Shown in pieces: positions 1 to 55,920 of a DNA stretch of 55,920 nucleotides (position 1 is the first letter of the stretch; every line of letters begins with the position of its first letter). The translations under genes and the position numbers were made by a program. A model generated the notes under the pieces. It worked only from the letters and a program-made list of their open reading frames with translations, ran no database searches and was not told the origin of the DNA. Origin of the DNA: Streblomastix strix (taxonomy: Eukaryota); the NCBI GenBank assembly GCA_008636045.1, contig SNRW01000004.1, positions 1 through 55,920 on the forward strand. Reading direction: 5' to 3'.

Positions 1-2
1 TA

Positions 3-878
3 GCTGCACTCCCAGCTTGCGATGGTTAAAGTAGCGCTTCAGTTTCTCCGAATACTTGCAAATGTGTAGAAGGCCATACACCAGAGAATTGCGTGTGTCC
101 AGTAGTACCAGCTTAATTAGCCACCATTCCGGTGGATCGTTGCCAATGTTTAACAACAGGAGATCCAAGAGCAGGTCAAACTACACCAACAGGAGCTATA
201 TGTCCTGCATATTGTGCGGACAATGTATATGAAGAAGGATGTGCTTGCGACAGTAGCATTGAAGCAACATATGATAAATGCAGGGAAGATAAAGCATATG
301 ATGGTATATAAAAATGCGCTGAACTTACAGCAGCAACAGTTGGAGTTGCAACATGCATATGCGATGGAGCAGCTAACTCACCAACACATTGCGTCTGTCC
401 AAAAGATGATGATATCGCAGATCTAGAAGGAGTACCATCAGCTAGATGCGGCTGTTTATCAACTGGGGATCCAAGAGCAGTAGCAGAAGGAATCTGCCCC
501 ATATATTGCGTTAAAGACACTGCAACAGCTGATTGCACATGTGACAGTGCAATAGAAGAATATCCAGTTGCAGATTGCGAAAAAGAGAAAGCCTGTAAGC
601 ATGATTTAGCTGCACAAACAAAGGAGGACTGTGAATGCACTGGTGATAGTGATCCAAGAATAGCTGGTGTATGCAAACCTCCAGCAACTGTTGATTGTGC
701 AACATCCATCGATAAAGATACTCCAGTAGAAGACTGCGCTTGCCCCACTGATAAGAAGTTATTGAAGAAAGATCCACGTTACACAAAAGGTGGACTTTGC
801 GCAGCTGGATCAATGAGAGCTGCTTTGGCTGTGGTGGTTTCTGCCTTAATCATCCCAGCTTTAATTCTGTTCTTCTGA
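3..878 (+). CDS. Cysteine-rich surface protein, 3' part (5' end outside window), with C-terminal hydrophobic GPI/TM-type tail
   Basis: Frame 3 is open for 291 codons if TAA=Gln (3 TAA): AALPACDGQSS...CQCLTTGDPRA...CGCLSTGDPRA...CECTGDSDPR...GSMRAALAVVVSALIIPALILFF, then TGA at 876-878. CxC...DPR motifs repeat. Confidence 0.85.
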
Positions 879-7569: not shown

Positions 7570-8510
7570 ATTCTTTAATAGACTTATATTGGATGTATGA
7601 ATATTTCCCTTAGTCAAATTTCCTTACATAATCACTTATATATTGGCTCTAGAACCTAGCTTTGAGGAGTTATAACCTCGGATAAATGAATCATCAGTAG
7701 CCAAATTCCATGCAAGCATATATTTATTTGGATAAATTGTTTTTGTTGCTTTGCTTCCACTATACAATGTTGTTAAATAGAATATGTTAGCTGTTTATAA
7801 AAATTTTCATTATCTATCAATCCATAGTAATTTTTCTTATCATCAACATTCAAGTTCTCAAATGTAAGTGAATGATATAGATCTGATGAGGCACTAGCAA
7901 CATCTTAATCAATGAAGCAGTCAATCATTAATCCATTTGTTGCTTAATTCAATGATTTATATGGCTATAGGATAACATTATTCTAATCAATAACAAGATT
8001 GAGTCCTGTGAATAATACAGGGAAAAACCATGTTGGATATTAGGGCATAGCAAATGTCATAAATAATGCTTTTAAGTTAGAGAATGACATAATGCTTTAC
8101 ATTGATCCACTTTCTTTATCAAACTCACTAAATGGAAAGTTCGATGATTATGTTCTAAATACTTATGTAGGAAAGTTTACTATTTTTTGTTATTGAATCA
8201 TACTAATTATAGCTTCTTCATTTTCAATATTGAAGCATATGTTTTATATCTCTAATACATCAAATTTAGCTGTTCTAATCTAACAAATTGAGTTTAAAAG
8301 TATCTTATCATCAATAGCCGCATTTTAAATTTTTTCAATTCTAATATTATATCCCAGATATTCATGTACTCTATCTTCAGTAGGCTCTTTTAGTAGATAA
8401 ACTATATCAAGTTTCTCTGGAGGTATCATATGATATGCAAGATTGGCATTAGGAATTGTATCTTATTTGTTAAACTATACAACTTTTAATTTTTTCAAAA
8501 AATCATTCAT
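7570..8510 (-). pseudogene. Putative major capsid protein fragment (paralog of 44138-46120)
   Basis: LAYHMIPPEKLDIVYLL...NICFNIENEEAIISMIQQQKIVNFPTQVFRTQSSNFPFSEFDKESGSMQS...YMLAWNLATDDSFIRGYNSSK aligns directly with the main copy. Confidence 0.75.
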
Positions 8511-8600
8511 CCAAAGTTATAAAGAAAATGATGCATAACTACATTTAAATACTGGAAAAGAGTTACTAGGCTAGGATGAATGATGTTTATTTTTACAAAA

Positions 8601-9090
8601 ATGGAAAAAGCTGTAACTTAAACAATCAAACAATTATTCAATGATTTAGTCAAATAACACTTTCAAGACAATGATACAGTTAAAGTTACAATTGAAGCAT
8701 TATAAAATTTACTAAAGAATGATGTAAAAGTATCAATCCATCCATTATTCTAAGAATTAACGAGAATCAATAAATTGTTCACCAATCAATATTAATAATT
8801 ATAAAATATAAAGAAAATGGTAGATGAAGAAGATTATGAAAATAAGTTATTTAATGAATAAGATAAGTACCTCAAAAATAAATATTTATTAATTAAAAAG
8901 TCATTAGATCAAAATAATTAACGATAATATATAAAGAAGTATATTATCTCTGAAGCTAGTGAAAAAAAAATTAGATTTACTATTAATTTGCGAACGATGA
9001 GTAATACAGTATCTTTGTCAATTATTATCAGCTTAATTCAAAATAATAAGATTGTTGATATATTAGATGTATTTGATTATTTCTTCAATT
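8601..9090 (+). pseudogene. Polinton hypothetical protein (paralog of 41560-42090)
   Basis: MEKAVTQTIKQLFNDLVKQHFQDNDTVKVTIEALQNLLKND vs MEKHQTQLIKQLFNELVKSHFQDNDSIKITIEALQNLLKND. Confidence 0.7.
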
Positions 9091-12682: not shown

Positions 12683-14000
12683 ATGAGCGACTCAACAAAA
12701 TTAAATTAAGTGTAATTTAAAAAGCATCCATCTCGTCAAGATATATCTAAAACAATACCGGGCATTCCTCAGTCCAGTAGACAAATACTGAAGCAATCGT
12801 CGAAAATTCAATTTTCTGACTTATCTTGTAATATCAAAGATGGTTTGAGCGATGATGCAGACAATTACACTCTACTCGAGGATGAATACATGTAATCAAA
12901 GGGTTGTGAGGCTTTCGTCGATGAGATAGATGATGATGTTTCTGTACGTTTTCACGGTCAAGTTAAAGCGATTCTGAAAGAAAACGGGCACTTTGAACAT
13001 GAAACAAAAGAAGAACTTCATTACAGTTTTTGGGAATTTGAGTCTCAAGAGAACATGAAGATCTGGACAGCTTATGTACTCGCGGATGCTGCATAAATTA
13101 AATCATCCCATCTCCAGAATGTAGTTCAGTCGCGATTGCAAAGTGTCATATTCAGAGTTCAAAAGCAACTTGTCGTTGATGTATTCATACCTCCAAAGAT
13201 GATTCCAATGAAACGCAAAGGGCGACGAAAGCTAATTGGTAGATGGAAAGAGCTCCATTTCATTATAAGCCTAGTTCCAACAGCAGAGATAGTAGTATTC
13301 CAAATTTAATTCTTTAGTAGATTAGAAGATAACACAAGACATCGTTACAATATTTGAGGGAGTTCTAAAGAAACCGGCATCAAAAATCGAAATGCTGAAT
13401 CATTCACTAGAACCTGTTACAAGACAGATGCATTTTGAAGACATATCCTGGAATGGTGCAAATATAATCTTCCCTATGTCTGAAGTTGGTCCTATTCTGA
13501 AAGAAGAAAGTCCTGGATATGCAAGAAGATAGTTGGAATCGTCTGCTGCTGTCACATAAGGAATGGCAATGCTGATAAATGACGCAGCAAGGAATGAAAC
13601 AGATAATCTAGTGGGCAAGATGCTTAAGGTATTCGAAGCGTCACTTATATCAGTAGCAGATGCCTCGTCCAAAGAGAATCAAGACAAGAAGGTGTAGATC
13701 AGAGGCCGTAGAATGAAGACGTTCTATCACAGCATACTAAGGAAAGATACAAAACGAAGTCTGGAAAGTAAATTAACTTAGGAAGAGGAAAGTTTGGGAG
13801 CACGTTTGGGAAGTATAGCAGTTAAAATAGAGGAAGGAAGCAGTAAAACAAGAGAAACTTCTAATACTAACCAATAGGAGGATATAATCGTGTGTTCAAG
13901 GCAAAAAAATTCAAATCCAGCTCAGGAAAATACCATATTGAAGATAAATATTATCTCTGATTAGTTGAATCTCAAACATTCCATAAATAAGATTAATCCT
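12683..14000 (+). pseudogene. DIRS ORF1 (gag-like), disrupted
   Basis: ATG at 12683 (MSDSTKLNQVQFKKHPSRQD...), long open frame with one TGA and a frameshift near 13400. Called mainly by its position upstream of RT. Confidence 0.55.
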
Positions 14001-14571
14001 CTACTTCACTCACCACTGTTCAATCCATTATCCTTAAATAATATATCGTTGTTAAAAGAATCTTCACATCTAAATTAGACTAAACACCAGGAAGAGTTCA
14101 AACTCAATTCAATAGTTCCAGATTCCAAGTTGTGCTAAAGGAATCGAACGTAATAATAAAGTATATACCAACATTATTCGAATATGTAGGCTTAGCAGTG
14201 CGTCGGGATTTCCAATGCTTTGACACTGTATTAACAGCTAGATAACATATTGTCAAGTTAATGTGTTGGGAGATAAACTCCTATGACCCTGACAAATGCG
14301 GAGAAGGAGACGTAGTGCGTCAGGATTGTAACTCCTTAGATCTTTCCATGCAACATGCAATCACAACAGTGCGTTGGGGAGATTCTCCCTTAGATCCTAT
14401 TAAATAATTGAAAGGATACGATGAAGTTGAACAATAATAATGTAGTGGATCACACAAAGAACAGATGCAAAAATAGAATAATTCATTAAAGAATCAATGT
14501 ATCCTCCATAGATAAACTTATATATCATCGATTTATGTTATCTCAACCTTCAAATACCTTTAGTTGATACA

Positions 14572-16640
14572 ATGAGACTAGTTTCGGCTTCTCCAATAGG
14601 TATCACAATTCCTAATATTCGTAATCAACCAGATTTCACCCAATAACTATTCACAGATCATCAATATCAATCTTCAGAACTCCCAACAGATATAATATCC
14701 CAACTTTGTCATGCCAATTCTACTCAGATCAATTGGCCAAATGGTGAAATACTGATTCATTTTTTAGATATATGGAAACTTATCAAAGCAGAGATACTGA
14801 TAACAAGAGGTATTAAAGCATACTGGATCAGTAAACAAGCACCACAAGTACTGGAATTGAATATAATAATCATAAACTAGAGGAGATCTAAAGAAAGCGA
14901 AGTGGCTCTTGGATTACTGATACGGAAAGAACTGCAAGAGGAGATTGTGGAGGGGGTATCATTCAATCAACTGAGATGGATTAATCCCTGCTTTGCCATT
15001 TCAAAGAAGGATAAAGGAAAATGGAGGATGATAACGGATAGTTCCTTGCTTAATTAACATCTCCTTTCATCATACTTTATAGTGGAGGACATATAGAGCC
15101 TTTGACAACTTCTAAAACCTAAAGATTTCATGATGAAGATCGATCTGGAGTCCGTCTTTCATCATATTCAAGTTGATAAAAATTTCAGACCCTTCTTCGG
15201 ATTCACCTTCAACAATAGGTTTTAGCAAAATAGAGCTGTGCGCTTCGGGATCAAACATGCCCCACTTATTTTGCGTAAGACTATTCGTCCAGTTACTAAA
15301 TTCATCAGAGAAGCTCTCCAAGTTAGAATAATCGCATATTGCGACGACATCATCATTTTACACCAAAATCAAGAAGTACTGAACATCAAGAAATAGTTCA
15401 TCATCAACAACCTAACGAACTTTGAATTAAAAATATCAATAGATAAGTCTGTACTGACCCCAATGATGTAGATAGAGTTTCTTGGCTACAAAATAGATTC
15501 AAATCAAGATAAGATATCAATGATGCAGAGTAGATGGAAGAAAAATAATTTGATGCTGGGAAGATGGAGAAGGATTGTAATTAAATAATAGATAGTCAAA
15601 GTCAAATTTTTAGCAAGTTTCATTGGGTCTTTGAACTTCATGAGGCCCTATTTAATCGAGGAGGTATTCGTCTCAAAAAATTGAACAAGATTAAGTCAAG
15701 AGCGACACTTCAAAAAGGCTGAAATGCTCTTATCTTCCTGAACAAATTAGTCCTTAAAGAGATATTCAGATGGATGGCAGTGATAACAAATAACCATCCA
15801 ATTCAGGCAACAATTATACAACCTCAAGCGATCCTAGCGACAGATGCGAATCAGACCCACTGGAGTGCAACGCTGAAGCTGTTCAATCCAAAACAAGAAG
15901 TATGGTTTTGGGGCAAATGGAGTCAAAACTGGCACTTAACAAGCAGAAATCAGAGAGAAGCTGCAGCTATTCATTGCTCGCTTCGCTAATCAGAAATCTT
16001 CTTGAATGAAAGGTAAATCAAATCACTCAAAATAGAGACAGACAATTCATCAGCTGCATTCAACATCAATCCAATATCAGCCGCAGTGGATCTAGCAAAG
16101 TTGGTGGAAAGAACTCTGGAAATTGCTAAAAACTTCAACCTGCACTTCATTAGTTCCACATTCCAGAAGAAACAAACAAGATTCCGGACTCATTGTCTAG
16201 ATTAACAACATCCGGAGACTATTCACTACACTAAGAAGTCTTCGAGGAATCCATGCGATCTCTAAAGATACGTCCATCAATAGAAATGTTCGCAAACAGA
16301 CAGAATAGGAAGCTTAAATGATTCTTATGCATCAAAGCGGACAAATTGGCAGTGGGACAAGATTATATGTCACTCCCATGAAAGGGAGAACTACCATACC
16401 TCCATCCACTGATTCCACTGATCCAAGCAACTCTCAACAAAGTATGAGAAGACAACGTTCAAGCAATGATTGTAGTACCAAACTGGCCATCCCAACTTTG
16501 GTGGCTGAGTCTGACTAAGTTTGCATCAAAATATTTCAACCTGTGAAAAAGAGTTGACGTACAGAAGACGGGCGGTCGAATGAAGAAAGCAAAAAAGCAT
16601 CTTCCTCCAGGAGAAATACTCGCAGTTAGACTAGAGGCAA
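14572..16640 (+). pseudogene. DIRS reverse transcriptase / RNase H / N6-adenine methyltransferase-like ORF
   Basis: RT: WINPCFAISKKDKGKWRMITD, KIDLESVFHHI, FGIKHAPLI, IIAYCDDIIIL (YCDD at 15337-15348). RNase H: LATDAN, NQRE, IETDNS, NKIPDSLSR. MT: IEMFANRQNRKL, LPYLHPLIPLI, IVVPNWPSQLWW. Contains stops and frameshifts. Confidence 0.9.
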
Positions 16641-17601
16641 TAGAGGCGAGGAGCTCTTCAAATGGATCTTGTCAAAGAGGTAGCTCTCTGAGAGTGCCAC
16701 TTAATAAGTCATTGATGTATGGCATAGCATCTGGAGTAGATATCGATAAAGAATAGGATAATTTGAGGAGTTCTGGACCAAATCTGGGAAATCATGGGAA
16801 GTTCTAACTACAATGAAGGACCCTGAAACTGTGATATCGAATTTCATTGCATAATAAGTCTCTGCAAATGCTACCAACGCGAATTCTTATGCATGTAGAA
16901 CAGCAGTTGGCATGCTATTCAGAATTCAAGGTTTTTAAGAAGATAAGATAAATGGATTTGCACTCAAATAAATAATGAAGAAACCAACTGCCGCAGCAAG
17001 GAAAAAGACAAGGGAAGAACCAAAATATAAGTTGAATGTCTTGTTGAAGTACATTCAGGGCAAAGCCTAGGACAAATAGAAACTGAATGAGTAGGAAAAT
17101 CTTGGATGCACAATATCTTCAATTATGGCTTTTTCTATCTTTCGCTTAGCAGAAATTCATAGAGCCTCAGTAGTTCATTTAGATAGCAATGTTTCTATGC
17201 TAAATACGTCAATTTAGAAGGGAAATCATTATGATCTCACGGTCACCTTCGGACCATTATCCAATTCTAAAGTATGTCCAACTGAATGGCTTTAAAGCTG
17301 GTTCGCGTTGAGAAAAAAAGACGAACTAGACAAACTTCTTTGGTGGAGAGCGAAAAATATGAAAACGTCATCATACGAATACTTATCAAAATCTGTACAT
17401 TTAGTCATGAGCGCAGCTGGAGTTCATAAAGGAAACTCAGTTACTTCAATCAGAAAGTCTTCAATCACTAAAAGTCTCAATCAAGGAGCAAAAATCCTAG
17501 AGATCAACAGGGCATCTAGACATAAAGATGGACCTAGCACTGTTGCTGCTCATTATGATATGAATTTAAATGAAACCATAAAAGAGACTCACGAACTTTG
17601 A
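16640..17601 (+). pseudogene. DIRS tyrosine recombinase
   Basis: FSIFRLAEIHR, KVCPTEWL, SIRKSSITK, RASRHKDGPSTVAAHYD supply the catalytic R...R...H...Y. Confidence 0.85.
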
Positions 17602-35400: not shown

Positions 35401-38400
35401 ATGTCATATCTAAAAAAAGCGGAACTAATTAAACTAGTCAAAATTAATAATAAAAACATAAATGAATCATTAAAAGTAAATTAGCTTAAAGATTAACTCA
35501 ATGAATATTTAGACAAAATTTATTATAAGAAGAGAGGAAGAAATAACTTCAATGATTTGAAAACACATTTAAGATAGATTCATTAATACAATCAATAAAT
35601 TATTACAGATAAAGATTTGGTATAACATTTCAAATAGAATCAATATGACTAAGATTTATAGGATTATCATAAGGAATAATTGTAATAATAAGCAGATATT
35701 TACTATGATGATTTATAAGAATAGAATCAATAATTAGATTAAGATTTATCACACTATCATTCAAATTAATATGAATAAGATTTATAAGAATATCGTAGGG
35801 AATAAGAGTTACAATAAGCTAATGATTTCTAGACTGATTTATTCAACAGAGAACAAGAGTAAGCTTAAAGAATTATGGATGAAGAATATGATGCGAATCT
35901 ATAATATTTAGTAACTTTCAAACAAAATAAAGAGATTAATGATAGAATTTATTAGTTTAATGTGAAAAAAATTAGAGAATTAAATTCAGATGCAGGTAAT
36001 CTATTATATTTTCTTTTCGAGAATATGGAATAATTTATTGCAACAGTTTCTAATGCAAGATAATGATTTGCTCGTGAACGTACCATTAATTAAACAGAAG
36101 ATCTGGGGTAACTTAGCTAATTACATTATAATAATTTTATCCAATTAATATCAGATATTGAAGAGTTTGTTGATAAAGTTTATGAGGAAAAGCCCCATTA
36201 AGCATTCAAGATTTAATTTAATTTTGGAGTAATTTATGATGAATATAAGTATGATTAGTAAAATTTCATTTATGTTGATTATAGATATATATTACCTAGA
36301 GATACACAAATACAGGAACATGCTCCTAAAGTTATATAATCTAAAGATGATATTAACGAATATTAATAATACAATAAATCTGAGATAATAAATATGTAGA
36401 ATTATAAATTTGGAAGTACAAGGTAACGATATATAGCTATCTATTCGATGATGATCGAAACATTTAATCTTTAACCGTAAATTGTTGGAGTTGGTATGAA
36501 ATAATTAATCGATTTTCATTGTCTGGGTCGCAAAAATGTTATATATATAAAAATACAGGAAATAATAACAATTGTTATATGGAAGCAATAGCTAAAGCTT
36601 CACATCCAGACACCTAAGAGAAACATTATAAAAGTGAATCAATAATAAGCATTAGTAGAGAATATTTAGTTTATGTATTAGAGCTACAATTCGATTCAAA
36701 GAGTAGAAAAATGACAGATTTATTGAAGATATTTGAAGGACTAGACATAACTAAATATGCTAATATAGTATCATAAAAATTAAAAATTAACTAAGATATT
36801 TACCTTAATGATAATGAACATAAGAATTATTATAGAGGACTGTAGATAATGTATTAATGTGAGCAATAAATTGAAAAATAAGAGATTAAAACTATTGATA
36901 TATTAGTTGTTGAATCGATTTGGGAAGAAAATAAGATATCACACACTTTCGCTATAGCTAATAAATAAACATTAACTGGATTGAAATTTTGTCCTCATTG
37001 TAATTCAAAAGTATTCGATCCTAAAAATAAAAATTACTCAAGAGACTATGAGAAACACATTATTAAATGTGAAAATAGCGAAGGAAAAATAGTTAAGAAA
37101 GTTAAACTAGATTATATCTAAAAGTAATTTGTTTCACACATTATGCTGAATAAAACTTATCAATATCTATTATCAAATGGAAGATAACATGAGTTTAAAC
37201 CTACATAATACTTCATCACATATGATCTTGAAACAGTTCCCAAAATCGTTAATAAAAAGTTCAGTAAATCAAGCTACTAAATGTTTGAACTATTTTCTTT
37301 ATAAGTTGCATCGACTATTCGTAATAAATACGGGATTAAGAAAATCTTCTTTAAGTAATAGGATGGAGATGATTTTATAGTTTAACGGTTACATTAATTG
37401 TTTAAATAAGCTGAGTAAGTTAATGCAGATAATTAATATATCATAGAAGCCTGTACCTTTGATGAAACAATTCCTTATTCAATAGAAGTACAAATAGTAG
37501 GATTCAATAGCTCAAGATTTGATATATCATTAATTATATAATAAATGTAATGTAAAGATTGGACAATCAGTAATTATATTGGTAGCACATCAACAGCTAA
37601 GTTGGTAATTGTACATCATAAGAAATTGAATTTGAAGGTGAAATTTGTTGATATGTTAACGTATCTTTAACCAATTGAATTAATGTAAGCTGCTAAATAT
37701 TTTGGTGATGGATACGATGATAAAAAAGACTTATTTCCATATGAAGCTTTCAATACTGATAACGTTAATGAAGTACTAAGCAAATCAGAGCCATTTGCGA
37801 TGGAAGATTTCAAATCGTCATTAAAGAAAACTATAATTAGCTAGAAGTATTATCAGATTTAACTAGATGAAGCAAAACGATTCAAAAATAGATGGGAAAA
37901 CTTATAGTTCCATAATGAATAAGATACTTATATAATGATCAAACCATTAATGACTCTAATTAACTTACAATTTAAATATAAGATTGATATGTTTAGTTTC
38001 ATAAGTATGGCTGCAAGCTCTAATGCTATCAATTATGCAAAAGTATATGAGGATTTTGACATTTATGGAGTATATCCTAATTTTGAAGATAATTCTTAGA
38101 AATTTTACTTAACTGAGAACTATTGATAGATTAACGTGTATGTATATCAATCATAAGATAAACATTAAAGAAGAGAGACAACAAACAATGTTAAGGACAG
38201 CGATTACAATTATTTCAATTAATTATTCAAAGATTCTAATTGTAGCATTTATCGATGTAAATTCACTTTTGCCAATAAGCCAACATTAGATTGAATCGAC
38301 AATTCAAAGGGTCATTCAAAAGATAATGTTTAATCATGTTATTTATATTGCAATTGCTTCTGTTCTAACAAAGACAAAAATATAGGTAAATTGTTCTTAT

Positions 38401-40006
38401 AATTAAGTAAATATTGCGTGATAAGATGTTTACCAAATAATCTTACAGATATTGATGTATGTTACTTAATACGATCGGGGATAACAGGAGGATTATCAAA
38501 TGTAATGCATAGAGTTAATTTATCAAGAATTGATTTTATAAAATGATTATGGTATGATAAAGATAACAAAATGGTAACTGTTCTAACAACTGATCATAGA
38601 ATTACTCATGTAGTTGGTGTTGATTTTAATTCCTTATATCCTAGTGTTATGTCATCAGAGCCACATAAATTTATTAAAAATATAAGAGCTAAAAAGTATA
38701 TTTGTGGTTCATAAACATGTAAGATTGAGAGGGACGATGACCATTAAAAATAAAATATATTAAGAATAATTAGTAGCATAATTAGATTTATAGCTGATGG
38801 CTAATTATTCATTGCAGAAGTTAAAGGTCATATTTAAGAGAATTACCTTAACGATTTCATTAATTTTCCACCTATTCTAAGGAATTATGAATTCACAACT
38901 GATGAAAGAACTATCGGTAGTTATATGTATAATCATATTAAAGACAATATGATTAAGACTGATCAAAAACAAAGAAAGTTAACTAATCTATCATCAACCA
39001 TAGGAGAATATATGGCATTTAGTTCATATTATTTATGGTTTTTAATTGATCATTGCCATTTTATTATAAATGATGTGAAATAGATAGTGTTGTTCAATAA
39101 ACTTAACTAATTCAATTCATTTATTAATGAATTTACTAAAAACAGAATTGAAGCAAAATTAAATAAGAATAAGGGAAAAGTATAATTCTTTAAGATAATC
39201 ATGAATAGTTCATATGGTAGTGATGGAATGAATACAGAGAAATATCATAAAGTTAAAATAATGAATAAAAAGTAAATAGAAAGAGCTATTAGATCTAATG
39301 CATTCATAGACGAACAAAAGATATCTGAAGACAGTTATATTGTATAAATGAAACCTGAGCATTGTAGTTGTAAAACACCTTTATAAGTAACATTCTTTGT
39401 ATTGGATAATGCTAAATATTGGTATCTAAACTTCATATTTAATTTCATGTACAAATGCTCTGATACGAATAGGATACATTTTATCGAAGGGGATACTGGT
39501 TCAGCTTATTGGGCAATTAATGGAAATCCTAATGAAGATTTTACTTAGTAATTTGATGCTACAACAAAAGACCTAGATTTTTATAATGATAATGCTAAGT
39601 ATTTCTTCCCTAGCTGCACAGCAAACACAGGGATTAAAGGAGACGTTTATGATGAAAAGAAAATCCTTCGATTAGCAATAGAAAGACAAGGAATTCCAAT
39701 GCGCGCTTTTGCTCCTAAAAATTACATGATAGAAACTAACTACTGTGCTAATTTAAAATTAAAATTAAAAGGAATTAATTAGAATACTAACAAGATCACT
39801 AAAAAATAGATAGTTGATTGCATTGATGATGGAAAGATAACGAAACGCACTAGTATGATAATGAGATAAAAAAACATTAAATGAGCTAATTATCAATTGA
39901 GAAAAATAGAATCACAGGAATTCACTCAAAAATGATAGTGTTTAAGAATCAATAATGCTGTCCTTTTATGTTTGGGCTCACGGCGAAAGACTACTAATAT
40001 GAATGA
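35401..40006 (+). pseudogene. polB: Protein-primed family B DNA polymerase with Zn-finger and inserted HNH/endonuclease VII-like domain
   Basis: FCPHC...HIIKC; ExoI FITYDLET; ExoII GFNSSRFD; FVDML; LFPYE; ITGGLS; motif A VDFNSLYPSVM; motif B KIIMNSSYG; motif C EGDTGS (D>G); APKNY; KLKG. TGA at 40004-40006, with internal stops and frameshifts. Confidence 0.93.
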
Positions 40007-42199: not shown

Positions 42200-43839
42200 A
42201 TAGCTTTCATGGTCCATCTGATAGTTATTTCGATAATACTGATACACCTGATTTAACATAACCCAGTGCGGTTAAATTTGCAAGAAATGTGACAGTTAAA
42301 AGGTGTATATGATCATATCTAGAATAATAAAGTGATGTTCCATTAGAAGGATTTAAATTAGGTTTCGGAAAGCTTCCATTATTACAATATACATTAATTG
42401 AATGAGCATGATTACTTCCAGCATAAAATGTTGAATTTCCAGCAATTCCGTTACCTTCAACATCTTATAGAGGAGCTGGGGTAGATACATTAAAAGCATG
42501 GTAATGATTTGCTCTAGCATAATTAATCGAATTGCCAACTCCACAAGTTCCAGAATCAACTGGCGGTATTTCAGTTGTGGCATATTTTAAAGGATGCTAA
42601 TGGTCAATTCTTGCATATATATTCTATGTACCAGCAGAGCCAGCTGCTGTAGTAATTTTAACGGGAAGTGATGTTAATACATTTAATTAATGAGCATGAT
42701 TAGAACATGCAAATGTAGCATTAATTCCTATGACTCCATTTATTGTATCTTTAATCATTACATCAGATGAATCATTAATTGTATGTATCTGATCACTTCT
42801 AGCATATGTGTTAGCTAAACCTGCAGTTGCTTCTCCATCAGGTAATGAGTTCACTACTGATACATTTAATGGATAAATATGATCATTTCTAGCGTAAAAA
42901 TATTGATATATAATTATCTCCTTATCCATCTGGTTTTGGAATATTTCCAGCATTAGTTTCTACATTAATTGGATGAGAATGATTTGATAAAGCATAATCT
43001 GTTGAAGAACCATAAGATCCAGTAGTTGAATCAATTACTGGAATATTTGATGAAAATTTTAGTGAATGTTAATGATCGGATTTAACATATATAGTTTATG
43101 TTCCTACGTTACCAACAGAGCTATCTTTTCAGGTAACATTATAGATACATTATTTGGGTGTCTATGATCTCTTCTAGAATATTCATTTGAAATATCTGCT
43201 TAAGCTGTCCCATCAACTAATGGCAATGAATCACTAGCAGGAGTTTGTTAATCAGGAACAGTTTGACCACTTTGAATCCATTTATTTAATTATTTAGTTG
43301 AATTATCATAAATATATTCTTATAAATATTCTGCTGAATACGCATAATCACCATCGGCTGCATTAAGTAAATTATATATTTCTTATATAGTCGAATAATA
43401 TCCTCTAAAGTGTTATTATCTAAATAATTTTTATTGAATAACTACAACATCTTATTAAAGATAACCAATGTCCGCTTCCTACGAACCAATTGATGCTTAT
43501 AATTAATTCATTTCATTATCCTGCTACATTATCTAAGCTATAAAATCAAAATTAATTGGTTTTAAATTCTTTATCGTTAATAGTCCATTTGGTTCTATTT
43601 TTAATGCATAATCAGATGTCATTCAATTAATGATTAAATTATTAGCAATATACACTAATGCCCCATCGTTATCCATAAATAATTGATATTCATCATTTGA
43701 CATCATACTTTATCCAGAATTGCCACATTTCGAATATTGGTTATAGTAAGCTATATCGTAAATGATAAGTTATCTAACAATACGGATTTATTGTTGGGAT
43801 AATGAAGTACCAAACTCCGTTACCGCTGAATGTATTCAT
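42200..43839 (-). pseudogene. Fibre-like protein with ten Y-A-R-x-D-H-x-H-P type repeats
   Basis: ATG at 43839, short coiled coil, then ~30 aa repeats EYSRRDHRHP, IYVKSDHQHS, DYALSNHSHP, FYARNDHIYP, TYARSDQIHT, TFACSNHAHQ, IYARIDHQHP, NYARANHYHA, FYAGSNHAHS, YYSRYDHIHL. Contains frameshifts. Confidence 0.7.
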
Positions 43840-44137: not shown

Positions 44138-46120
44138 ATGTCATTCAAATCTAGTGATTATCTTGGATGATTAGCAAAAATACAATATTCTCATTTTATT
44201 AGTAATTATATTTAACTTGACAAAGTTATAAAAACATTATCTATCTATCTATAACTATTTGAAATATCAAAGCAAAACTTCTTCGATTCTACTGTAATTG
44301 AATTTATATCCAGTGGAGTTAAATTTACTAGAGCACCATTAGGAGCACGAGGTAAATCTGCATGTTCAATGGTATAAACTTGTTAAATAAATTGGATTAT
44401 TACTATAACAGCAAATATGTTAGCGATTTAATTGAATAAAATATATGAAAAATGTAATACTACAGGTAAATTAATTGCACGAACTAATTTCAATAGTAAA
44501 GAAGATCCAACAGCTTATTGGACTACAAATATGTCATAAACAACTTAAGGATATTTTGGTAAAACAGCTTATGGTATTGAATCGTCAGAATATCTATAAT
44601 TTTGGATTGGTTTCTCAACAGCTTGTATATCATTCTACCAATTCTAACTAATGAAAGATGCAACAGCAATATGGGGATCTGCAATCTTTGCAAGAGAATA
44701 AGCAGTAATTAGTGGGAATTCTCTTAGAGGCATATATACTAAAAATAGCGTTAGCGAATCAATCCTTGAAAGTATAATTGAAGGAAAACGTTATTGTGGA
44801 ATATTTATTGATATTCCACTTTGTGAAATTGACAGACAAGTAACTGTTTAAACTACTGGAATACCATTCAATTACAAAATTCCTTTTGATTTTACATTTA
44901 GGTGGGTATTTGATCATAAGTAACTAAATCCTATATTTATTTCATTTCCTGTTCTTACACGTAATTATCGAACATTACAATTAAAATTATCGATATAGGA
45001 TTTCCTATAAGATTAGAAGGCTGTTTCGCTTAATAAAAATGACACTATAATGAATAATCATTTAGCTTATCATATGATTCCTCCTGAGAAACCTGAAATT
45101 GTTTATCTTTTAGCTGGAGAAGATTCAAATGGACTTGAATAATAGAGATATAATGTAAGAATTGTAAAAAAGTAAAATGCAACTATTGGTGATAAGATAC
45201 CACAAAATTCAATTAGTTAAATTGGATCGGCTAAATTTGATGTATTGGAGTTTTAGAACGTATGCTTCAATATTGACAATGAAGAAACTATAATTAGTTT
45301 GATTCAATAACAAAAAATAATTAACTTTCGGACATAAGTATTTAGAACATAATCATCATACTTTCCATTTAGTGAATTTGACAAAGAAAGTGGATCTATG
45401 TAAAGTATAATGTTATTCTCTAACATAAAGGCACTATTTATGATATTTGTTATGCCTTAATACCCTACATGATTTTACCATGTATTATTAACAGGACTTA
45501 ATCTAGTTATTGATTAGAATAATATTATCCCATAACCATATAAATCATTAAATTAAGCAACTAATGGATAAATGTTTAACTGCTTCGTTGATTAAGATGT
45601 TGCTAGTGCTCTATCAGATCTATATCATTTACTTACATTTGAGAACTTGAATGTTGTTAATATGAAAAATTTCTATAGATTAATAGATAAAAATAATTAA
45701 CATAAAACTGAAAACATATTCTATTTAATAAAATTGTATAGTGGAAGTAACGCTGTTAAAACACTTTATCCTAACAAATATATGCTTGCACGGAAAATAG
45801 CTACTGATGATTCATTTATGCGAGGATTTAACTCTTCAAAGATGGGATCATGAACTAATGTATAAATAATTATGTAAGGAAATTTGACTAATGGAATTAT
45901 TGATATATCTAATATAAATCCATCATAGAATTAAAATAATTTCAAATAATTCATTGGAACTGGAGCATATCCTGATCCTACTAAAGCGTCAATTACTACA
46001 ATGATGCATTACTTATGTGATGCATTTGTTAGAATTATATTTGATGACAGCTCAATACCATAAATACTAAATATTGATGTTATTGGAGAGCTTGCTGGTG
46101 GAGCTATTAAACCTCAATGA
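44138..46120 (+). pseudogene. Putative major capsid protein (660 codons, 3 in-frame TGA)
   Basis: Single frame from ATG 44138 to TGA 46118-46120, beta-rich, strongly conserved in the second copy. The capsid call is inferred from size, conservation and context, not from a motif. Confidence 0.6.
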
Positions 46121-50154: not shown

Positions 50155-53100
50155 TCAAACAATTGGAACTCCTTTCACTCTTGCAATTATCTCTTCAAAT
50201 ATCTTCTTATCCTGTTTCAAGATAAATAATAATATATAGAAAATAATAAAATAAAATATTTTAAACGTATATTGCTAATGAATATTAATACTTTCATGCT
50301 GACTTTGGTAGAATTATAAAAATCTTAAACAGAGTTTGGAATTACAAAAATATCAAAGTTCGGAAGTTCCTGCATAAAAATACAAATAAATTATATAATA
50401 ATCAAAAAAACATAATTTAAAAAATTAAATTATATTCAAAATAACTTTCAGATGAGCAGGTCTTCCTTTTTGCACAAGGAACATTCCCAGCTCAGAATCA
50501 TTGGCCTTTAATAATACAAATGAAAAAATATATATTAATAAAATAAAATAAATTAAAATATAAAATATGCAAAAATAATAATCTAATAATTTTTTAATTA
50601 TATGATCAGCATTTATACTTTGATATGATCTACTATCCATGTGGAGCAGAAAAGTGAAACCTGATATGAACAAATTAATAAACAAACAAATAAATAAATA
50701 GATAAAATAAATAGATAAAGTAATAGGTAAAAAATTAATAATAAATAAAATTATATAAAAATTATTTCAAATTTTATGTATTTGCAAACTTCAGCCAGTG
50801 GAAGTTTAAAACGTGAGAGACTGTCTGAAAATTCAACAACCTTCATTTTTCAATAAAAATTAATATCGATTAATATAATATTTATGAGGAAAACAAATAA
50901 ATTTATTAATCAAATAATCATATTTTCAAATTCAAACAAATCCAATCTTACAAAATTAAATAAATAATACCTTCTTAAATAATGCAATATGCGCTTTCCA
51001 ATGTTGTTTCTTCACAACATCTGGATATTTATATTCTTCCATCAGCATTTCTTCATCAGAAAAGTGTGTTCCTATTTAGAATATCAGAATGAAAGAGAAA
51101 ATAATTATATATTAAACGAAAAAAAAAATTATATAAAAATAAAAGTTCAGCGAATTTATTGGATTTATTACTAATGTATTCTAATACCAGTCAATCTCAC
51201 AATAGTGTTGAGAGTTGCTATTATTTCAAAAGTGTTTTTATTCTCTTATACGCCAATCACAAGTTGAGCTAAATAACCAATAAGCGCTGATCATAAATAT
51301 AATAATATTAAGAATTAATTAAAAATGATTAAATAATGTCTGTTTATGATTATAGTTTATAAATTCTTACTTTCATGAGCAAAGTCTATTCGTCCAACTT
51401 ATACTACGAGATCATCACTCCATTTAATAATATCTTAATCTTTTGTTTTTAAAAATCTATAAAATCATTTATATAAATTTACAAAAATAATTAATATTGA
51501 TAATAATGTAGATAATAAAATAGATAATAAAAAATATATAAAAAATAAACAAACCTCATCATCCTGTGTGATATTATCTGAATCTGTATAAGTTTCTTTG
51601 GAACAGAAAGAAAGAAAATAAATGATATTACAATGAGTAAGAAGAATCCCAGTAAGAAGAAAACTAAAAGCAGTGTAGAATCAGTATTTGTGAAAGTGTT
51701 GAGATCACCCTGTGATTATTATAAAAAAAATATATAATATATTGATTGATAAATAAGAGTTAAATAATATAATATTTAAAAAGTTTGCATTTTTAGTGTT
51801 ATTTTACAATTTAAATATCATACTTATAAATAAACTCCAATCCAGGTAAGAGCTCCCTGAAATTTCAAATAATAATAATTGTTTAAAAGTATAATGATTA
51901 TAATTATTATTATATTAAAAAAATTCATTATTTAATTAAAATGCAATATGAATACTTAAATATCGAGATCAGCAGCTCTGTCAACCAAAACATAATCGGG
52001 ATTTGTGTCTGTAAGGTTTTCAAGTGGATACTAAAATAAATAAATTTAAAAAATTAAATAAAAATAACATTGTGATTTTTTAAAATAACTTTATTGAATG
52101 TCTTTAATATTTAAACACCTTGAGGAAATCGAGTAGAGAGGATCCAAGACGTGAAAGAAGTTCATTCAATCCATAGAATTCACCTTCAATACCTGATTTA
52201 TATAAAAGAAAAATAAATATAATAATAATGAAATATATTAATTAATAAAAACTTTTATTTATTTTCATAATTATGAATTTGAATTATACCTGGAATTCTT
52301 CCAGGAATACATTATGTTTCATCTTCAAGCATACATGTTTGTACTCCTATATGTGAAATTGTAAAAAAGTAATAAAATTAAAGCAAAAAGATTATTAATG
52401 ATTATAATTAATTTCGAATCTATTATTATTTATTGTATTGATTTAAAGTCAATAATTATTTATTATATATATTAATATCAAATCATAATATATTTAATGC
52501 AAACCTGTCATTTTCTCATCCAATTCTTTATCTGATCCCTGTGTGGCTGCTACATTAATCATATCAAATATCTGTTAACGATGAATAAGTGAAAATAATA
52601 ATAGAAAAATATACTGCATTAAAATTATATAATTTGTCAATTTCTTTAAAATAATAAATTGTTTCATTGTTATCATACCTCATCTCCTGAAAGGATCTAT
52701 CCAGATTATCCCTGAATAAACAAATAATAAATAAATATGAATAAAAATCATATTAAATAAATATTTAATCTAAAATCATTTAATTAACTAAAAGCTAACA
52801 AATCAAACTTGCATAAATATACTCCCCAAAGCATTCGTCAACTGCAGCAACTTCTGCATCGCTTCTCTGCAATGGTCCCTCGAAGTAGAGAAGTTTGTAG
52901 ACGTTATCGCAGGTGTTGTATACAATGGATCCGTATATATGAACTAAGGGAGATATGCATCAGATGGTCTTTAATCGATCTATTCACGAATCTAACCAAC
53001 TTTCTCTTCATACAGAGGAAACAAATTGTTGTATGTATACGCAATTGCAAGAGCCTTGATCTGTGTGATGGTTACTCTCCTCCAGCCCGACAGACCAATA

Positions 53101-55920
53101 TGCCCTGAGATAGTTTCTATCTGTTTCATTACTATTATGCTGAATATGAAAGATATATATGTGGATAGTATGATAAGTATTGTGCCAATAACCAGCTGCC
53201 ATTTGATGGAAGATGATACGATTCCTGAGATGGACTTTAATTTATCGTCAACCTGTTCTGATCTTTATTGCTGTTGTCTTTCTCTTTCTTCTTCTTCTGG
53301 GCTCATTTGGGGTTCATCTTCTTTTTGTTGATCTTTTGGTTTCTATTTTAGATCTTCATCTTCTTCTCCTTCTTATTTATCTTATTCTGAGAGAAGCATC
53401 TGACTGTTCATGTTCTTGTTATCACTTTTCGATTTGGCGAATTATCTTTATTGCTGCTTCTGCTTCTGTTCCAATTGATATTACTTCTCTTCCTCGTCTT
53501 CTTCTTCATCTGGAAGATCAACATAATGAAGGCCAAATTTATTGGGCTTCGCTTGTCCACCAAAGCTCTGATTCATCAGCATCATCTGCTGTTATTGGAA
53601 GTTCATCATATTCATGTTGGGATTCATACCATTCATTTGCATCTACATGTTCATGTTCTTATTCTAATTCTCGTTGTCCATCAATTGATCTTCTTCATTA
53701 TCGATTTCATATCCTTCTTCATCTAATAATACTTTCTATTAGACTTGTGGGAGTTGTGACCCTTTTTATTATTTTTTATTTGCTAGTTTTGCTTTGTTTT
53801 GAGGATCAACTTTCTATCTTTGTTAATCATCTTATGGAGTAGTCTATCTAATTTGCTGCTGTAATTGTTATTGTTATTATTATTATAATTATTACTGTTG
53901 AGTCATTTACATAAATTATTGTTATTATTGTTATATTTATTATGGGTTCATTCCCATTTGCTACATCATTGATTACTACTGAAGCTGCATTTATGTTTAT
54001 TATATCTACTACATCTGATTCTAAACCTCGGCTGATTCCTTAGAATTAATTTACATTTGCTGTTAAATTACTTACATTTGCATATTGGATTGTTATGCTT
54101 GTATCTGATACTGCTGATATTATTAAAGAAGCTATTATTGTTATTATGGGGGTTTCCCTTATGATTATTGCTGAACTTGTTGCATTTATAATTAATTTTA
54201 TTATAATTGCTGTTATAAAATTGTTAACTAATTTTGTAGTTATTATTAATTCATTTGCAATTGATTGTTATTCATTTGTAACTATTGGAATTTGGCGAGA
54301 TTTTATTACATTTATTATTAAAGTGGATTTGTTGTTTGTTGGACATTCTGTTATTAGGGACCTAATAGTAAATAAAAAAATATGAAAAAGGTAAAATAAA
54401 ACATAAATTAAAAATAAAAAATTATATAATTTAATTAAATAATATATATAAAAAATAAACCAGTTATCATCAATGGTTGCATCATTCCTGTTCCTTACAT
54501 TTATTAATTTGTGTTCATAATATTCATATTCATGTTATTATTCATTGTTGCATTTGGCATATTTATTCCCATTTAATTAAACATCTACAAATTTGCATTG
54601 TCCAAAGCACTACTATTCATCATTTAATTCATAATTTATCCATTATTTTAGCCCATCATAGGCAATATTTCTTTTGATTCATGAACTTTAATCAATTTAT
54701 TATCCTTATTATCTTTTTCATTCACTTTATCCCTTTCTTTAGATTTACCACGAGCACTCACTTTAGGAGTAACTCCATCTTCCTTCTTCTATTCACTATT
54801 TTCCTTCTTCAATTCATTATCCTTATCTTCATTATCTTATCCATCTTATTGACTCTTAGTAACTGACTATGCTTATAAAGTATTCCTCTGTTATTCTCTG
54901 GGCTCTTATGATGACTATTCCATCTTCTCAACTGCATATGTGGCTGATTCTATTGGGAGGGAGCAGATCAGTTTGAGGATTTGCTTACGGTCTCTGATTA
55001 GTATTATATAAGGTGGTGTGTATTATATATATAATGTAGATGAGAATTGTTAATGATAGATAAAAATATATAAATAAAAATATCAATATAATAATAATTG
55101 AATTAATTCTCTTTTTCTTTAAATTATAAATTTTTATCAACAAATTTAATTTTAAATTAAATTATCTATTTACCTTACTACTTCATTAATACCCATTATT
55201 AGAGGAAGGGTTGAAGCTAAGAAGAGAACAATTGCAACAGCAACCATACATATCACTTAGATAATAATACCTCTGGTTGATTCACTATGAATTTGTAAGA
55301 AAAATAATAATAATAAATATAATTATATTTAAACAAAATTAATTTATTTAACTAAGAAATAAACTAATAAAAACCTTATTATTAATTTCAGTTCATCTCC
55401 AAAGACGTTTTTAATGTCTTCTGTGAAAATGTATGGTACATTCACAGTCAGATCAGCAGTTAAACCTCTGATTGTGGCTAAGTCAGGAGTTATCTAATTA
55501 TAATAATAAAATTATAGATAAAACATGAATCTATATAAATAATCATTTACATATCCATTTCATATAATAAACATATCATCCAATTAATTAATTAATTAAT
55601 TAATCCACCCAATAATAATATCCATAAACTCCTCCAATACCTCAATCCTGTATCTGTCCACAATCTCTGCTCCCATATCCTGGGCCCATGCAGCCATACC
55701 TGCGAGATCATTCATGTCCTTCCTGATACCAATGATTGGTTTCTCTGGAGTCATTGTGTCTGGAGATGTATTTGGTAGATGGAGGGATGGATTAAGTAGT
55801 TATTATTATGATGATGAATATGATAAAGTATTTTAATTAATTAAAGTTGGAATTGATTCATTTAGGAAAGATTATTCTAACAGCGTTTCAGTTTAATTTT
55901 TATTGTTTTCAGTAATATTT
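50155..55920 (-). CDS. Large multi-exon multi-pass membrane protein with low-complexity loop and C-terminal hemerythrin domain (5' end outside window)
   Basis: TM segments IIIQVICMVAVAIVLFLASTLPLIMGI (~55180-55270), WQLVIGTILIILSTYISFIFSIIVM (~53130-53200) and one near 51610-51680. Hemerythrin exons: IKWSDDLVVQVGRIDFAHE / THFSDEEMLMEEYKYPDVVKKQHWKAH / STWIVDHIK / ANDSELGMFL. TGA at 50155-50157. Confidence 0.85.

Follow-up and report, generated by a model that had tools for sequence, protein, structure and literature searches.

A hemerythrin domain on a TmcB-family membrane scaffold: a candidate oxygen or redox receptor of Preaxostyla

A spliced gene at the end of the window

The window, that is, the whole stretch of DNA analyzed (55,920 nucleotides), holds the 3' part of one gene on the minus strand (55919-50155), whose 5' part lies beyond the window end. 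Read with NCBI table 6 (TAA/TAG = Gln), this part comprises 20 exons separated by 19 introns of 76-180 nt, all of which are of the GT..AG type. The frame of the 20-exon model reads 84 TAA and 22 TAG codons as Gln without an internal stop, and its sole TGA is the final stop (50155-50157). The region is AT-rich, with a GC content of 0.33 in the exons and 0.13 in the introns. A word-based search with part of exon 5 returned one protein from 425 candidates, namely, P0001 (Streblomastix strix EZS28_011509; partial, 1379 aa), which showed 93% identity over the query exon (part of exon 5). S. strix is the closest named relative, which fits the placement of this DNA in a probably anaerobic gut protist by an earlier sequence-only reading. 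The exons and the predicted parts of the protein are as follows.

Exons 1-10, minus strand: 55919-55641, 55493-55375, 55284-55174, 54993-54461, 54361-52809, 52711-52679, 52571-52505, 52346-52290, 52192-52119, 52030-51956 (GT-AG, agreement with P0001)
Exons 11-20, minus strand: 51856-51824, 51709-51555, 51456-51371, 51286-51188, 51071-50971, 50840-50790, 50660-50619, 50505-50446, 50369-50292, 50211-50155 (GT-AG, agreement with P0001)
55272..55919, minus strand: latter half of predicted outer loop 1 (family profile E 3e-15; repeats the second loop)
55215..55271, minus strand: membrane helix b, model 138-156 (hydropathy peak 2.93)
53202..54993, minus strand: low-complexity loop, Gln/Asn/Met- and Glu/Lys-rich, putatively cytosolic (sequence, relatives)
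53118..53201, minus strand: membrane helix c, model ~735-762 (hydropathy 2.41; continuous helix in the predicted model)
51674..53117, minus strand: predicted outer domain 2, a four-helix bundle of ~230 aa (structure models)
51605..51673, minus strand: membrane helix d, model 991-1013 (hydropathy 3.23)
51423..51604, minus strand: juxtamembrane helix and short linker, split by intron 12 (model helix 295-316)
50470..51422, minus strand: bacteriohemerythrin-type domain (exons 13-18; seven ligands, pocket residues)
50155..50469, minus strand: two-helix C-terminal tail, ~50 residues from the last two exons, and TGA stop (predicted model, family comparison)

P0001 and the window model aligned without gaps from the second outer loop onward, down to the C-terminus; the two were annotated independently and are spliced alike. 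The donor of exon 1 was picked to preserve the frame and is consistent with P0001. The first ~55 codons (GC 0.25) form an open frame that is provisional, with ~95 profile positions absent from P0001 there. The P0001 model itself appears to skip part of the first outer loop (~95 residues), and at its residues ~605-665 (window 54361-53850) the public model seems to read the Gln-rich exon in another frame; its middle-loop annotation was excluded from use on account of this apparent frame difference.

Among introns 12-17, four would shift the frame if retained and three carry an in-frame TGA, and intron 16 alone does neither; their splicing, with the exception of intron 16, is therefore required. 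A separate gene for the hemerythrin exons was considered and ruled out, as intron 12 (98 nt, GT-AG) is in phase and its junction is kept in relatives. In relatives on short contigs, the membrane helix and the hemerythrin lie within one unbroken frame. P0002 equals MONOS_6676 over the last 1090 residues of the latter (1090 of 1090), and the whole of MONOS_957 (1879 residues) is contained in P0158; the short contigs of P0002 and P0158 are probably transcript contigs.

Elsewhere in the window, a protein-primed B-type DNA polymerase was observed in broken pieces, free of introns, at 36384-39884 (plus strand; PF03175 E 1e-9 at 38547-39881); these pieces likely stem from an endogenous DNA element of the Polinton type that has degraded in the protist genome. 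Two similar intron-free ORFs with shared stretches and no Pfam match (44171-45472, plus strand, and 7632-8732, minus strand) are possibly capsid-like genes of the same Polinton-type element, and a repeat-rich, fiber-like ORF (42207-43622, minus strand) lies nearby. A GC-richer region of broken ORFs at 13212-17601 (plus strand) gave no Pfam match at E 0.001; by eye, these ORFs resemble a DIRS-type retroelement in its reverse transcriptase, RNase H, and tyrosine recombinase genes. At 3-878 (plus strand), there is a Cys-rich, repetitive, surface-protein-like ORF with a hydrophobic tail end and no Pfam match.

Hemerythrin domain and membrane scaffold

Six exons (13-18) make up the hemerythrin domain, with the ligands on four of these and five introns inside the domain. 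The ligand set H-HxxxE-HxxxH-HxxxxD is complete, comprising, in model numbering with codons in parentheses, H1057 (51377-75), H1094 (51066-64), E1098 (51054-52), H1115 (51003-01), H1119 (50991-89), H1154 (50627-25), and D1159 (50499-97). The N-terminal WSDDL motif begins with W1042 (51422-20), and the pocket residues L1060, F1095, W1150, I1151, and I1155 are present. The sequence-only reading had claimed a complete domain with all seven ligands over about six exons, together with the W-S-D-D-L motif; both are borne out by these codons and by P0001, whose hemerythrin has the same seven ligands and is identical at 117 of 129 positions. A loose seven-ligand pattern arose by chance in 0 of 20,000 shuffles of the whole model and in 0 of 20,000 shuffles of the last 300 residues.

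P0001 scored above the cut-offs of TIGR02481 (76.5 bits against 51.75) and of PF01814, the hemerythrin HMM that the earlier reading had proposed as a check (30.2 against 25.3), and narrowly under that of NF033749 (81 against 84). Single exons of the window gave no hemerythrin match against Pfam: four of the five exons searched, three of which were hemerythrin exons, matched no family and one matched LapA weakly. The closest solved relatives of P0001 by sequence were myohemerythrin and DcrH-Hr, and the family profile matched the DcrH hemerythrin with an E value of 6e-16 among the best 60 of 96 rows of a PDB profile search. An AlphaFold2 model of the C-terminal 502 residues of P0001 (pLDDT 91.4) showed the N-terminal loop and up-down four-helix bundle. 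When this model was submitted to Foldseek, the first 14 rows were hemerythrins and the best was DcrH-Hr (TM 0.86 over the target, rmsd 1.8-2.1 Å), with E values of merely 0.01-0.05 because the query is multi-domain. The hemerythrin domain likely binds two irons. The C-terminal tail that follows it is kept in oxymonad members of the family and is absent or different in the Paratrimastix members seen.

The sequence-only reading had described the domain as the end of a large multi-pass membrane protein. The fusion stands, with the correction that the window contains just three membrane helices (b-d) of a gene that extends past its end. A fourth helix and the TPR region are visible only in P0001, and an N-terminal membrane bundle is visible only in longer relatives (hydropathy, 39 rows); in the window gene, the TPR region, assigned via P0001, and the N-terminal bundle would lie beyond the window. 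Residues 18-115 of P0001 matched PF25474, TPR_TmcB, with 50.4 bits (cut-off 27), and relatives also exceed the cut-off; on this profile the scaffold, which the sequence-only reading had no means of placing, is that of the TmcB/TmcC family. The layout is constant in the family: membrane bundle, TPR, helix-loop-helix, low-complexity loop, helix-loop-helix, short helix, and hemerythrin.

Homology between the two outer loops is supported by hhalign (91%, E 9e-7). Of 23 rows, 22 have a spacing of 229-263 residues across the second loop, and one has 205; this loop has a conserved Cys pair (codons 52335-33 and 52311-09), each Cys being present in 22 of 23 rows. This Cys pair fits an outer location of the loop, which would place the hemerythrin inside the cell, and the domain likely faces the cytosol. 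The region of helix d (991-1015) is identical to P0001 at 25 of 25 positions. Only 27 residues separate this last membrane helix from the hemerythrin (Pro1015 to Trp1042), and in each of the 35 rows reaching that point, 26-33 residues lie between the helix end and the hemerythrin Trp, whereas the spacing from helix b to helix c ranges from 111 to 635 residues across relatives. A fixed linker beside a variable upstream loop is as expected for mechanical coupling.

In the 502-residue AlphaFold2 model, a long helix crosses the membrane and enters an outer domain of four helices, and a long return helix is followed by a 22-residue helix, the hemerythrin, and the two-helix tail. The outer domain was also modeled from a fragment of a relative, P0089, rather than from the window protein (pLDDT 88.4). 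Foldseek found no match for the P0089 outer-domain model. With VIA, bacterial sensor domains took 10 of the top 12 rows, with Z scores of 11.2 for PilJ (rmsd 2.5, 119 aligned), 10.4 for McpN, and 10.2 for PcaY (113-119 aligned), where ~13 is needed for helical bundles, Z 9-11 is reachable by a common helical-bundle arrangement, and designed bundles score 9.5-9.7. The resemblance of the modeled outer loop to bacterial chemoreceptor sensor domains of the PilJ, McpN, or Tar type is thus a lead only.

Distribution in Preaxostyla and ligand loss

The last 502 residues of P0001 were searched against 1.84 billion representatives, which gave 6085 matches at E<=0.001; the best 150 were used and 30 of these were looked up, yielding 28 family members and two other hemerythrin proteins. 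Directly or by cluster, 23 of the 28 members belong to Monocercomonoides exilis, Blattamonas nauphoetae, S. strix, or Paratrimastix pyriformis, and the remaining five have no organism named. A further word-based homolog search gave five Paratrimastix proteins, and the word-based searches yielded TmcB members from Preaxostyla only. In the available part of the PMC10703272 supplement, one row unites 12 genes of Paratrimastix and a single Trimastix transcript, and at least five further rows contain oxymonad genes only. By sequence comparison, the gene is one paralog of a multi-gene TmcB-hemerythrin family common to oxymonads and their free-living relatives, that is, Preaxostyla-wide. The survey of Preaxostyla proposed by the sequence-only reading has turned up the same architecture, and the span of the family, together with the five introns inside the domain, fits its view of a fully domesticated domain.

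Several entries named "hemerythrin" or "putative hemerythrin," from Blattamonas and including MONOS_10517 ("Hemerythrin"), are family members. UniRef names P0030 "RGS domain," a label that we rejected, as there is no Pfam RGS match and a six-ligand hemerythrin stands at that place. P0007 (Blattamonas KAK2960695.1, 3353 residues) contains two whole TmcB-hemerythrin units in tandem and probably represents two neighboring genes fused in annotation.

A quick hemerythrin tree was built from 147 rows and 135 columns; P0026 and P0068 were dropped by a length/score filter, and 16 fragments or near-copies were omitted. On one side of a branch with an SH-aLRT of 98 stood 31 family rows and P0105, itself a family fragment, with the 115 others opposite. 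The tree fits a single fusion event without proving it; the 115 non-family rows carry no taxonomy that would point to a donor. The fusion probably arose once, before the split of Paratrimastix and the oxymonads.

Ligands were counted in 36 family domains from 35 proteins, including near-copies such as window/P0001 and P0010/P0155, at an overall identity among the domains of ~20-35%. E1098, H1115, and H1119 are retained in 36 of 36, D1159 in 35, H1057 in 33, and H1154 in 32. At the H1094 position (window 51066-51064), His is found in only 14 domains and is replaced in 22. All seven ligands are present in 11 domains (the window gene and 10 other rows), six in 21, five in three, and four in one, which is a fragment. 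We take H1094 to be one of the two His on the O2-binding iron, following the usual numbering. The non-family matches have His at this position in 116 of 116, although they had been picked for their resemblance to a query that itself carries His. In a tree of 28 rows from which the hemerythrin columns were left out, the state of this position changes three times, whether by loss or by gain, and at least two changes are forced by well-supported branches. The paralogs have probably lost one histidine several times.

Possible function and relation to known systems

We favor, at roughly even odds (about 0.5), the interpretation that this TmcB-family multi-pass membrane protein carries its cytosolic di-iron hemerythrin as a DcrH-like O2/redox switch with a non-enzymatic output. 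O2 entering the cell would bind to the di-ferrous site or oxidize it; a change of order in the N-terminal W-S-D-D-L loop, as proposed for DcrH, would then pull on the juxtamembrane helix. The O2/redox state would be combined with whatever the outer four-helix bundles bind, and the output would pass through partners on the TPR region or the long loop without an enzyme domain. One possible output is cAMP signaling, which has been reported for Dictyostelium TmcB. The complete ligands and pocket, together with the DcrH hemerythrin as the closest solved structure, argue for this O2/redox switch. So do the fixed linker, the Cys pair, the sensor-domain matches of the modeled outer loop, the kinase of P0034, the hypoxic induction of Dictyostelium tmcB, and the unbroken frames of relatives; the lack of PAS and cyclase matches in the family proteins scanned, Z scores within the helical-bundle range, and the P0001 score under the NF033749 cut-off count against it. 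Against a canonical O2 function stands the complete ligand set in just 11 of the 36 family domains, and as the H1094 position keeps its His in so few of them, canonical O2 binding is not the role of most family members. The O2, redox, or iron sensor role put forward in the earlier reading is a plausible inference.

A PAS domain following the TPR region is typical of the TmcB/TmcC family but not universal. Pfam searches for PAS and cyclase domains found neither in 44 family proteins, many of them fragments (P0001, 33 of one 34-protein set, and 10 more; the bacterial-type P0025 is outside this count). One Paratrimastix member is annotated as "PAS domain sensory protein FXL5" and has no Pfam PAS match. 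Neither in the window nor in P0001 did a catalytic or MCP domain turn up, the N-terminus of the window gene lying beyond the window, and no cyclase appeared among the best 60 of 96 rows of the family-profile PDB search. A kinase follows the hemerythrin in 1 of the 44 proteins, P0034. This protein (P. pyriformis KAJ4460679.1) has a seven-ligand hemerythrin and then a Ser/Thr kinase domain, which may reflect a genuine receptor kinase or a fusion of gene models.

The pattern of ligand loss can also be read in terms of iron. Hemerythrin-type iron sensing is known from animal FBXL5 and plant BRUTUS/HRZ, and the domain could be an iron-occupancy sensor, in which the filling of a second iron site reports cytosolic Fe(II) rather than O2. 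The three-His half and both bridging carboxylates are retained (32-36 of 36), one His has been dropped repeatedly, and its loss would weaken one iron site; moreover, for the hemerythrin of P1B-5 ATPases, the choice between O2 and iron sensing is left undecided in the available text of PMC9388753. We consider this reading unlikely for the window gene, which has the canonical O2-binding motif and pocket and whose nearest structures are O2-binding hemerythrins. The same ligand losses, with 25 of 36 domains short of at least one ligand, three of them having five and one fragment four, might indicate a structural or protein-binding relic in which the metal is merely structural. This is very improbable, given that six ligands persist in 32-36 of 36 rows at such low overall identity, and that all seven are found in the window gene and 10 other rows.

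Two further explanations concern the direction and purpose of the fusion. A membrane-tethered scavenger of O2 (or NO), shielding Fe-S enzymes near the cell surface and having no signaling role, would be compatible with the lack of an enzyme output domain in the family proteins scanned; in the available text of PMC6759080, the M. exilis hemerythrin is placed among oxygen-stress genes by analogy to Campylobacter, and MONOS_10517 belongs to the TmcB-hemerythrin family. Such a scavenger would be costly, with one di-iron site per ~1700-residue membrane protein, and signaling fits better with the fixed coupling length, receptor-like outer domains, paralog expansion, and ligand loss; we regard scavenging as rather improbable. 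Alternatively, the signal could run from outside to inside, with the outer bundles sensing a ligand and the hemerythrin serving as the output through its oligomer state, O2 affinity, or partners. The hemerythrin does directly follow the last membrane helix, and the linkers of Paratrimastix members read like T-x-K-M-x-E-L-F-P, which we take to recall the cyclase transducer helix. However, the PDB rows for the family profile mentioned above contained no cyclase, the linker motif is eroded in the window gene, and hemerythrin as an output domain was not met in the literature searched; we regard this arrangement as likewise rather improbable.

The preferred interpretation, an O2/redox switch, can be extended to a broader scenario that is possible but tentative. 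In Preaxostyla, including the mitochondrion-free oxymonads, a bacterial hemerythrin would have been grafted onto a TmcB scaffold, replacing its PAS/cyclase parts; the paralogs would have been tuned by His loss toward O2, redox, or iron, and the seven-ligand gene would be a true O2 sensor of gut gradients. The finding bears on the open question of how anaerobic protists without mitochondria sense oxygen and on the TmcB family, which is widespread and nearly unstudied; databases label the Preaxostyla TmcB-hemerythrin family only as "putative hemerythrin." The hemerythrin domain is small, soluble, color-reporting, and directly assayable, with natural seven- and six-ligand variants and cultured relatives in M. 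exilis and P. pyriformis. If true, the O2/redox interpretation would add a di-iron O2 receptor to the membrane proteins of eukaryotes and offer a way to learn which signals TmcB scaffolds pass on.

O2-binding hemerythrins occur in few eukaryote genomes, and fusions are mostly bacterial signaling proteins, according to the available parts of PMC4919030 and PMC2556348; the characterized hemerythrin sensors in the accessible sections of PMC9388753 are all bacterial. In the literature searched, which left most subscription journals outside, no paper on a TmcB-hemerythrin fusion was found, and one oxymonad paper mentions hemerythrin. The word "hemerythrin" has 0 uses in the available text of PMC10703272. 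The M. exilis "hemerythrin" (PMC6759080, Karnkowska et al. 2019) comes from the same lineage and has the same domain; in the part of that paper available, it is treated as a laterally acquired oxygen-stress protein, with no mention of a membrane fusion and 0 occurrences of "transmembrane."

The scaffold is shared with the TmcB/TmcC family (PF25474; Dictyostelium TmcB), including the N-terminal membrane bundle, the TPR region, and repeated helix-loop-helix membrane modules, but here hemerythrin ends the chain and a PAS match is found in 0 of 44 family proteins. The Chlamydomonas FXL proteins are heme-PAS members of the TmcB/TmcC family. Dictyostelium tmcB regulates cAMP signaling (PMC12750705, citing Muramoto 2005, as far as its available text goes) and is slowly induced in hypoxia (PMC12750705). 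P1B-5 ATPases are likewise multi-pass proteins with a cytosolic C-terminal hemerythrin-like domain, whose role is unsettled in the available text of PMC9388753; they differ in having an ATPase and the variant H-HxxxE-HxE-HxxxxD, whereas the window gene lacks an ATPase and shows the canonical motif.

Bacterial hemerythrin sensors (DcrH, Bhr-DGC, Bhr-HD-GYP) carry a functional output domain in one chain; the hemerythrin of the window protein is fused to a receptor-like scaffold. As far as the accessible sections of PMC9388753 go, such sensors have a large substrate tunnel, fast autoxidation, and redox-dependent output, and the same sections describe the O2-binding motif H-HxxxE-HxxxH-HxxxxD, the layout of DcrH, and its redox-dependent N-terminal loop; DcrH is a proposed aerotaxis receptor in the available part of PMC13401364. 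Among known systems, DcrH of Desulfovibrio vulgaris (PDB 2avk, 2awc, and 3waq) gave the best sequence-profile and structure match: it is a membrane receptor, likewise from an anaerobe, in which two membrane helices flank an outer domain and the C-terminus is a hemerythrin that has the same seven ligands and an N-terminal W-S-x-D-L loop. Unlike DcrH, the window protein is without a HAMP or MCP signaling domain and has its hemerythrin 27 residues from the membrane; its scaffold is of the eukaryotic TmcB type, with two outer modules and a TPR region, and its gene has introns.
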